DNA from: Escherichia coli
GTDB lineage: Bacteria > Pseudomonadota > Gammaproteobacteria > Enterobacterales > Enterobacteriaceae
DNA length: 64,000 nt
Assembly (NCBI RefSeq): GCF_024223415.1
Contig: NZ_CP100500.1
Direction: 5' to 3' (one strand)
A model generated the notes under the pieces. The model ran no database searches. It saw only the letters and a list, made by a program, of their open reading frames with translations, and was not told the DNA's origin. A program made the translations under genes and the position numbers. Shown piece after piece: positions 61,574 to 63,089 of the stretch. Numbering within the stretch: position 1 is the stretch's first letter; each line of letters begins with the position of its first letter.

Positions 61574-62181
61574 TACTTATTTGGTGGACACCACTTTGTC
61601 TAATTCGTCAGATTCTGACCAGACGGTTCAGGCTGTACGCTTACGCCGGTATTGTGAACTGCACCCCAAATGTTGGACATAATCTGACATCTGAAGGTGC
61701 AGTTTATGAAACATTCATTTGAAGTAAAACTTGCCGCTGTAAATCATTACCTGGCCGGTCATGCAGGCATCATTTCTACGGCAAAACTCTTTCAACTTTC
61801 TCACACCAGCCTCTCACACTGGATTAATCTTTTTCTTCTTCACGGTCCTCAGGCACTGGATTGCAGACACAAGCGTAGCTATTCTCCTGAAGATAAACTT
61901 TGCGTGGTTCTTTATGCTCTCGGGCATTCTGAGTCTCTACCCCGGGTAGCTGCCCGGTTTAACATTCCCAGCCACAACATGGTTAAAAACTGGATAAAAG
62001 GCTACCGCAAATCTGGTAATGAGGCCTTTATCAGGCGCAGGAAGGAGAAAAGCATGACCCGTTCTGATGATACCCATGAAAACGAGGCAAACATGACGCC
62101 GGAAGAGATGAAGAATGAGCTGCGTTATCTTCGCGCAGAAAATGCATATCTGAAAGCCATGCAGGAGCATCTCCTGGAAAA

Positions 62182-63089
<908 letters not shown>

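Follow-up and report, generated by a model that had tools for sequence, protein, structure and literature searches.

A probable programmed −1 ribosomal frameshift site, A_AAA_AAG, in an intact IS1397 copy of Escherichia coli

Introduction

The frameshift cassette of the cellular gene dnaX of Escherichia coli consists of an SD-like element, an A_AAA_AAG heptamer and a downstream structure. IS911, an element of the IS3 group, is laid out in the same way, and the stimulators of both systems have been proven experimentally. The IS150 type is arranged somewhat differently. IS150 and ISKpn8 have an orfA, an orfB in the −1 frame, the A_AAA_AAG heptamer, a downstream hairpin, TG..CA ends and an OrfAB protein of ~450 aa, but by the published rule they have no SD-like element upstream of the heptamer. 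The concept of a stimulatory SD is described by Sharma et al. (2014; PMC4066793), whose Table S4 gives SD/structure as N/Y for IS150 and as Y/Y for both IS1397 and IS911.

IS1397 is itself part of that survey. Table S4 lists it as cluster A_AAA_AAG_5 with the group assignment ‘Fam IS3/grpIS150/IS1397 [true]’, and a footnote to the cluster states that −1 frameshifting ‘can be safely inferred’, which stops short of a demonstration. According to Table S3 of the same work, E. coli genes show a strong avoidance of A_AAA_AAG in phase (z = −10.1) except where it is put to use, and frameshifting on this heptamer in E. coli amounts to 0.29% for the motif by itself, rising to 4.3% when the IS911 stimulators are present and to 39% with those of IS3. 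The alignment divergence for the IS1397 cluster was only 0.02, and the survey was therefore unable to test conservation. In the literature covered here, no experiment on frameshifting in this element was found. The frameshift site of IS1397 is already catalogued and is an ordinary one. What is new here is the conservation of the heptamer and of the SD-like element in six diverged relatives, the background rate of the hairpin rule, and the displacement of the site by eight codons relative to IS150.

Results

The DNA analysed, called the window below, is a stretch of 64,000 nucleotides from E. coli (contig NZ_CP100500.1). It contains an element of 1432 bp (61655..63086, + strand). From end to end, this element shows 100% identity to copies that many E. 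coli chromosomes carry under the annotation ‘IS3-like element IS1397 family transposase’. Of 5,426 complete genomes, about 1,707 have IS1397 at full length. The name rests on the RefSeq copies that carry the IS1397 label and the group on Table S4 of PMC4066793, and on these grounds we assign the element to IS1397, IS3 family, IS150 group. The 25-nt left terminal inverted repeat (61655..61679, +), starting with 5′ TG, is 84% complementary to the 25-nt right repeat (63062..63086, +), which finishes with 3′ CA; together they read TGAACTG...CAGTTCA and have the TG..CA ends of the IS3 family. The trinucleotide TTG flanks the element on the left (61652..61654) and on the right (63087..63089), a 3-bp target duplication within the 3–4 bp of the family. 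Excision of the IS together with one TTG restores the GCC AAT ACC GGC codons of the interrupted gene.

The coding content follows the two-ORF plan of the family, with a partly overlapping orfA and an orfB in the −1 phase. orfA (61706..62227, +) encodes a 173-aa HTH DNA-binding protein (Pfam HTH_28, 4.8e-17), and the sequence AAGGTG, 6 nt 5′ of its ATG, reads as a ribosome-binding site. The orfB frame, as it would be read after the shift (62185..63054, +), matches HTH_21 (2.3e-17), rve (2.9e-21) and rve_2 (1.4e-20), and its DDE core has an intact catalytic triad of D295 (62587), D355 (62767) and E391 (62875) with a spacing of 60/36; K398 follows seven residues past E391. A slip at the heptamer yields a protein of 449 aa with Pfam domains on either side of the junction. 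This fusion matches the NCBIfam model transpos_IS3 (NF033516) over positions 1–369 of 369 (2.1e-116; 389 bits, cut-off 160). OrfA alone scores 54 bits against the same model, and only the fusion matches the full profile. The best named tblastn matches of the fusion are ISKpn8, IS150 and ISEnfa3, at 42–43% identity over 96% of its length. The original prediction, which described an IS3-family layout with orfA, an in-phase A_AAA_AAG and a DDE-containing orfB in the −1 frame, was right in each of these respects, and the element can now be given the name IS1397.

The slippery heptamer AAAAAAG occupies positions 62179..62185 (+) and lies within a run of seven A residues at 62178–62184. With the phase set by the orfA start at ATG 61706 (or GTG 61697), the codons at this position are GAA (62177), AAA (62180) and AAG (62183), which gives A_AAA_AAG in the phase originally read from the letters as gaA AAA AAG. 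No other XXXYYYZ heptamer falls in frame within orfA. The −1 frame opens at 62119 and runs to a stop at 63052–63054. orfA ends at TGA 62225–62227, so the two frames, as read from the ORFs, overlap by 109 nt (62119..62227, +) with the heptamer inside the overlap. The orfA stop lies 39 nt past the last base of the heptamer and 46 nt past its first, of which the earlier estimate of about 45 nt was a fair description. A stop codon in the −1 frame between the heptamer and the DDE motifs would have spoken against a frameshift; we looked for one and none is present, so that the frame is open through the DDE-containing orfB (62119–63054) as had been proposed. The bare string AAAAAAG is not rare, occurring 20 times in the window compared with 12 ± 3.6 expected. 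What is non-random about this heptamer is its phase, its position in the overlap and its conservation, rather than the string as such.

Annotated proteins place the junction at the same site. The fusion predicted from a slip at this heptamer coincides exactly with the NCBI protein WP_225343597.1 (“IS1397 family transposase”), and the junction LLEKK|APGAG is found in 12/12 full-length 449-aa proteins retrieved from the cluster of that protein. In RefSeq, identical or near-identical copies of the element are annotated as a two-piece CDS spanning 61706–63054 (window coordinates) with the label ‘programmed frameshift’. Within the orfB frame, the first canonical start codon is GTG 62332. One point counts against the motif: for a Glu-Lys-Lys peptide, the slippery choice of codons is not improbable by chance.

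Because the alignment of the earlier survey was too uniform to test conservation, we gathered six diverged relatives, with OrfA proteins 53–59% identical to that of IS1397. Each of the six carries A_AAA_AAG in phase, at the codon position that it has in IS1397. The stretch downstream of the heptamer is free of indels in five of them, while the sixth, L014, has a 3-nt insertion just past the motif. Across nine aligned sequences from seven lineages the heptamer is invariant, as is the block GGAAAAAAAGCGCC (9/9). The residues of the motif use one codon each, GAA, AAA and AAG, in all seven lineages. Upstream, by comparison, 9 of 13 codons that are invariant in amino acid vary synonymously, and the Lys eight codons upstream of the heptamer alternates between AAA and AAG. 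This comparison of synonymous sites suggests that the motif is conserved beyond coding need, with p roughly 0.03 for the small sample of seven lineages. Together with its phase and the shared protein junction, the conservation of the heptamer makes it a firmly supported candidate for the −1 shift site.

Stimulators were sought with the published SD-like and hairpin rules of PMC4066793, the downstream criterion being a hairpin or pseudoknot 4–10 nt past the motif. An SD-like AGGAG at 62163..62167 (+) conforms to the published rule with a spacing of 12 nt. At the same spacing in the window, any SD-like motif is found at 12% of positions and AGGAG at 0.8%. GGAG at exactly 12-nt spacing is kept in 5/6 relatives, and L014 keeps GGAG although the peptide encoded there differs (MQEH to EREF). 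A role of this element as upstream stimulator thus appears reasonably supported by comparison of the sequences. The AGGAG also falls within a perfect palindrome, CAGGAG-CAU-CUCCUG (62162–62176), which is partly conserved in the relatives. Its CUCCUGG arm could instead pair with CCAGGAG at 62188–62194, which would place the heptamer in a 10-nt loop.

Downstream, the candidate structure is a weakly supported 38-nt hairpin (62189..62226, +; ΔG −13.1 kcal/mol) that starts at the fourth base past the motif, unusually close to it with a spacer of 3 nt. The published hairpin rule is satisfied at 105 of 150 random window positions (70%) and is non-discriminating here, while the same ΔG per nt as the IS1397 hairpin is reached at 27 of the random positions (18%). 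Shuffle z-scores from single-sequence folds are marginal, at −1.7 to −2.0. Of the hairpin, RNAalifold on nine sequences kept only the 4-bp closing stem, C(A/G)GG...CCUG, and the covariation term, at +0.64, was unfavourable. Pair cells of the hairpin are kept across the clade at 83%, versus 21–42% in slid controls, and 199 of 500 shuffles equal the 83%. No significant covariation was detected in the hairpin by RNAalifold or by explicit pair counting in the clade alignment, and its outer stem is broken in an intact IS1397 copy of 97% identity. A search for loop-to-downstream pseudoknot helices of at least 5 bp gave none. Folding of the downstream sequence, as suggested originally, therefore returned a hairpin of the kind sought, under a rule that most random positions also satisfy, and no pseudoknot helix of that length. 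Given the marginal folds, the lack of covariation and the shuffles that match its pairing, we do not claim a conserved stimulatory hairpin.

Alignment with IS150-group references, the other comparison originally suggested, recovered the same heptamer at a different place. In IS150 the slip falls on the Leu-Lys-Lys of ...YLKK (CTA AAA AAG), and IS150, ISKpn8 and ISEnfa3 all have A_AAA_AAG at a conserved ...AENAYLKK; more distant relatives also use the YLKK site. IS1397 has the non-slippery CTG AAA GCC at this point, and its clade has CTG AAA/AAG GCC (YLKA). The heptamer of the IS1397 clade is instead found at LLEKK, eight codons past the IS150 site and not positionally homologous to it, which adds eight more linker residues in frame 0. 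The slippery positions compared (loci L007–L010 and L017) are 62152–62158 for the IS150 type and 62179–62185 for IS1397. Between IS1397 and the distant relative L017, the downstream region aligns without an indel, and the heptamer is separated from a conserved Glu-Lys by 5 residues versus 13. The surroundings of the heptamer differ as well. IS150 and ISKpn8 have a stronger hairpin with a 10-bp stem (−17 kcal/mol) 7 nt past the motif, whereas IS1397 has the upstream AGGAG and a hairpin that is weaker and closer, in line with the N/Y and Y/Y entries of the two elements in Table S4.

The copy in the window has no disabling mutation. Its two inverted repeats are present, the 3-bp duplication is clean, and identical copies occur at many unrelated loci. 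Because it is intact, this copy is potentially active and mobile. Its appearance as a functional element, asserted in the original prediction, is an inference from intactness, namely from the ORFs, the inverted repeats, the duplication and the 100% identity to copies at other loci. A simple + strand scan upstream of orfA gave no sigma-70-like promoter, a result that is uninformative for a weak IS promoter. Two other IS1397 copies, L004 (98.1% identity, 1427 bp) and L006 (98.4%, 1431 bp), bear the annotation of frameshifted pseudogenes, and the E. coli population of IS1397 therefore comprises both intact and decayed copies. From the right end, a remnant of 65 bp (IS positions 1368–1432, 96.9% identity) is present in K-12 MG1655 (NZ_CP010439.1, 4344363–4344427). 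Such a remnant is found in roughly half of complete E. coli genomes (hits H86–H99), including ones without a full IS1397.

Compared with IS1397 copies elsewhere, the window element agrees in its 1432 bp, its ORFs, its heptamer and the ‘programmed frameshift’ annotation, and differs in its insertion site alone. Six other copies (L001–L006) all lie centrally in canonical REP/PU palindromes with duplications of 3–4 bp, which fits the published specificity of IS1397 for REP sequences (PMC1525189). The window copy is instead inserted within a coding sequence, at gccggtaTTGgcctcgttatccggcc. This site (61645–61654 and 63087–63112) is a PU-like mimic, with a right half that fits the PU motif TTATCCGGCC and a truncated left arm.

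The gene interrupted by IS1397 is an Ag43/Flu-like autotransporter gene on the minus strand (56377–59202 and 63087–63378). A complete IS66-family element, also on the minus strand (59203–61644; tnpC 59240–60778, tnpB 60828–61175, tnpA 61172–61573), interrupts the same gene 10 bp to the left of IS1397. It has the ends GTAAGCG...CGCTTAC and an intact 8-bp target duplication, GCCGGTAT, at 59195–59202 and 61645–61652. Either order of insertion of the two elements fits the sequence. When both are taken out along with a single copy of each duplication, the reading ...GAG GCC AAT ACC GGC GGC CAA TGG... is regained. Besides these interruptions the gene is further split into separate ORFs (58130–59128 and 56377–58098), and we therefore regard it as a pseudogene. 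The junction between the IS66-family element and IS1397 is shared by none of the complete E. coli genomes searched. The window has 15 occurrences of the octamer GCCGGTAT, where shuffles predict about 2, an excess that may reflect repeated autotransporter coding motifs. Just upstream of the start of the Ag43-like gene, three GATC sites lie within ~35 bp (window 63590–63640, cGATCGATagtaacGATCGATacctgttttatcGATCG). They resemble the agn43 Dam/OxyR phase-variation switch and may represent one.

Discussion

The most probable reading is that the heptamer at 62179–62185 is the programmed −1 ribosomal frameshift site of an intact IS1397 copy, and we place its probability at about 0.9. Most ribosomes translating orfA (61706–62227) would end at TGA 62225 and release the 173-aa HTH protein OrfA. 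A minority would slip, the two Lys-tRNAs on AAA-AAG (62180–62185) re-pairing one base back on A-AAA-AA, and would then read the −1 frame from 62185 to 63054 into a 449-aa OrfAB transposase with HTH_28, HTH_21 and DDE domains and the predicted junction peptide LLEKKAPGAGEK. Base pairing between 16S rRNA and the AGGAG, 12 nt upstream, probably aids the shift, and the modest hairpin that starts 4 nt downstream may do so as well.

The same protein would result if RNA polymerase added one A within the A7 run (62178–62184) and so brought orfA and orfB into one frame, and the two mechanisms cannot be told apart from the sequence. To slip efficiently, however, the RNA polymerase of E. coli needs runs of about nine or more A or T residues. 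The seven-A run is invariant (GGAAAAAAAG) in 9/9 aligned sequences, as this explanation would have it, yet the IS150-group relatives have only six As and still keep the ribosomal phase X_XXY_YYZ. Conservation of phase is expected under ribosomal slippage and not under transcriptional slippage, in which the conserved SD-like element, at a spacing that stimulates −1 shifts, would also have no role. Members of the IS3 family that use transcriptional slippage do exist, as PMC6211511 indicates, but for this element we consider the mechanism quite unlikely. Alternatively, ribosomes could shift elsewhere in the overlap and the heptamer at 62179 could be incidental to the coding of Glu-Lys-Lys. The second A-run, six As at 62201..62206 (+; GAG AAA AAA, codons 62198–62206), lies inside the overlap and might serve as an A_AAA tetramer. 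A_AA.A tetramers are used by some IS elements, a shift there would yield a protein of the same length, and the RefSeq copies H1 and H7 (L001 and L002), identical in DNA, carry WP_100245061.1 and not the heptamer fusion WP_225343597.1. This run nevertheless forms no canonical in-phase tandem-slippery heptamer and is not conserved, being GAGACAAAA in L014 and AAAAAG in several other sequences, and tetramers alone give only ~0.1–0.2% frameshifting (Table S2, PMC4066793). Fusions shifted at 62188, 62203/62206 or 62209/62212 were absent from the collection of 15 billion protein sequences, including those with a junction at the second run, while 12/12 annotated proteins use the first site. A main shift at the second run is therefore very unlikely, and it would be a minor alternative slip site at most.

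It is more improbable again that no meaningful recoding takes place, and that the element makes OrfA and an independent OrfB (GTG 62332, 240 aa) or is simply a silent copy. The ORF from GTG 62332 does retain HTH_21 and the rve core, no promoter-like site was seen upstream of orfA, and the element sits in a region heavily damaged by ISs. Against this, the full-length IS3-transposase model is matched by the fusion alone, the heptamer is conserved at synonymous sites in seven lineages, and identical copies occupy many chromosomal sites with fresh target duplications, which implies that the lineage transposed recently. IS3-family elements commonly make OrfA, OrfB and OrfAB together, so that separate translation of OrfB is in any case compatible with frameshifting; a protein initiated at GTG 62332 is possible as an additional product and not as a replacement for the fusion.

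With frameshifting at the heptamer as the preferred reading, IS1397 resembles the IS911 and dnaX cassettes, through its SD-like element, A_AAA_AAG and downstream structure, more than it resembles the IS150 type, although its stimulators are predicted where those of IS911 and dnaX are proven. The difference in position between the IS1397 and IS150 sites is plain in the alignments. That no indel is needed downstream suggests that the shift point slid within the overlap and that the length of the fusion was kept. On balance we favour, with some reserve, a history in which the frameshift point of the IS1397 clade moved 24 nt downstream in the overlap, a change of AAG to GCC did away with the old site, and an SD-like stimulator arose at the spacing that suits the new one. 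The SD-like element may functionally replace the hairpin, which is weaker here than in IS150.

The appropriate annotation of the locus is a single CDS for the IS1397 transposase, with the −1 programmed frameshift placed at 62185, and not two genes or a pseudogene. Beyond this correct annotation its significance is small. For the host, IS1397 is one of two ISs that inactivate an Ag43-like adhesin gene. For IS specialists there is modest interest in the relocated slippery site, in an SD-like element conserved in diverged relatives and in insertion at a REP-like mimic. If the proposed relocation is true, IS1397 would be a small natural example of a recoding signal that moves while the length of the fusion protein is kept.
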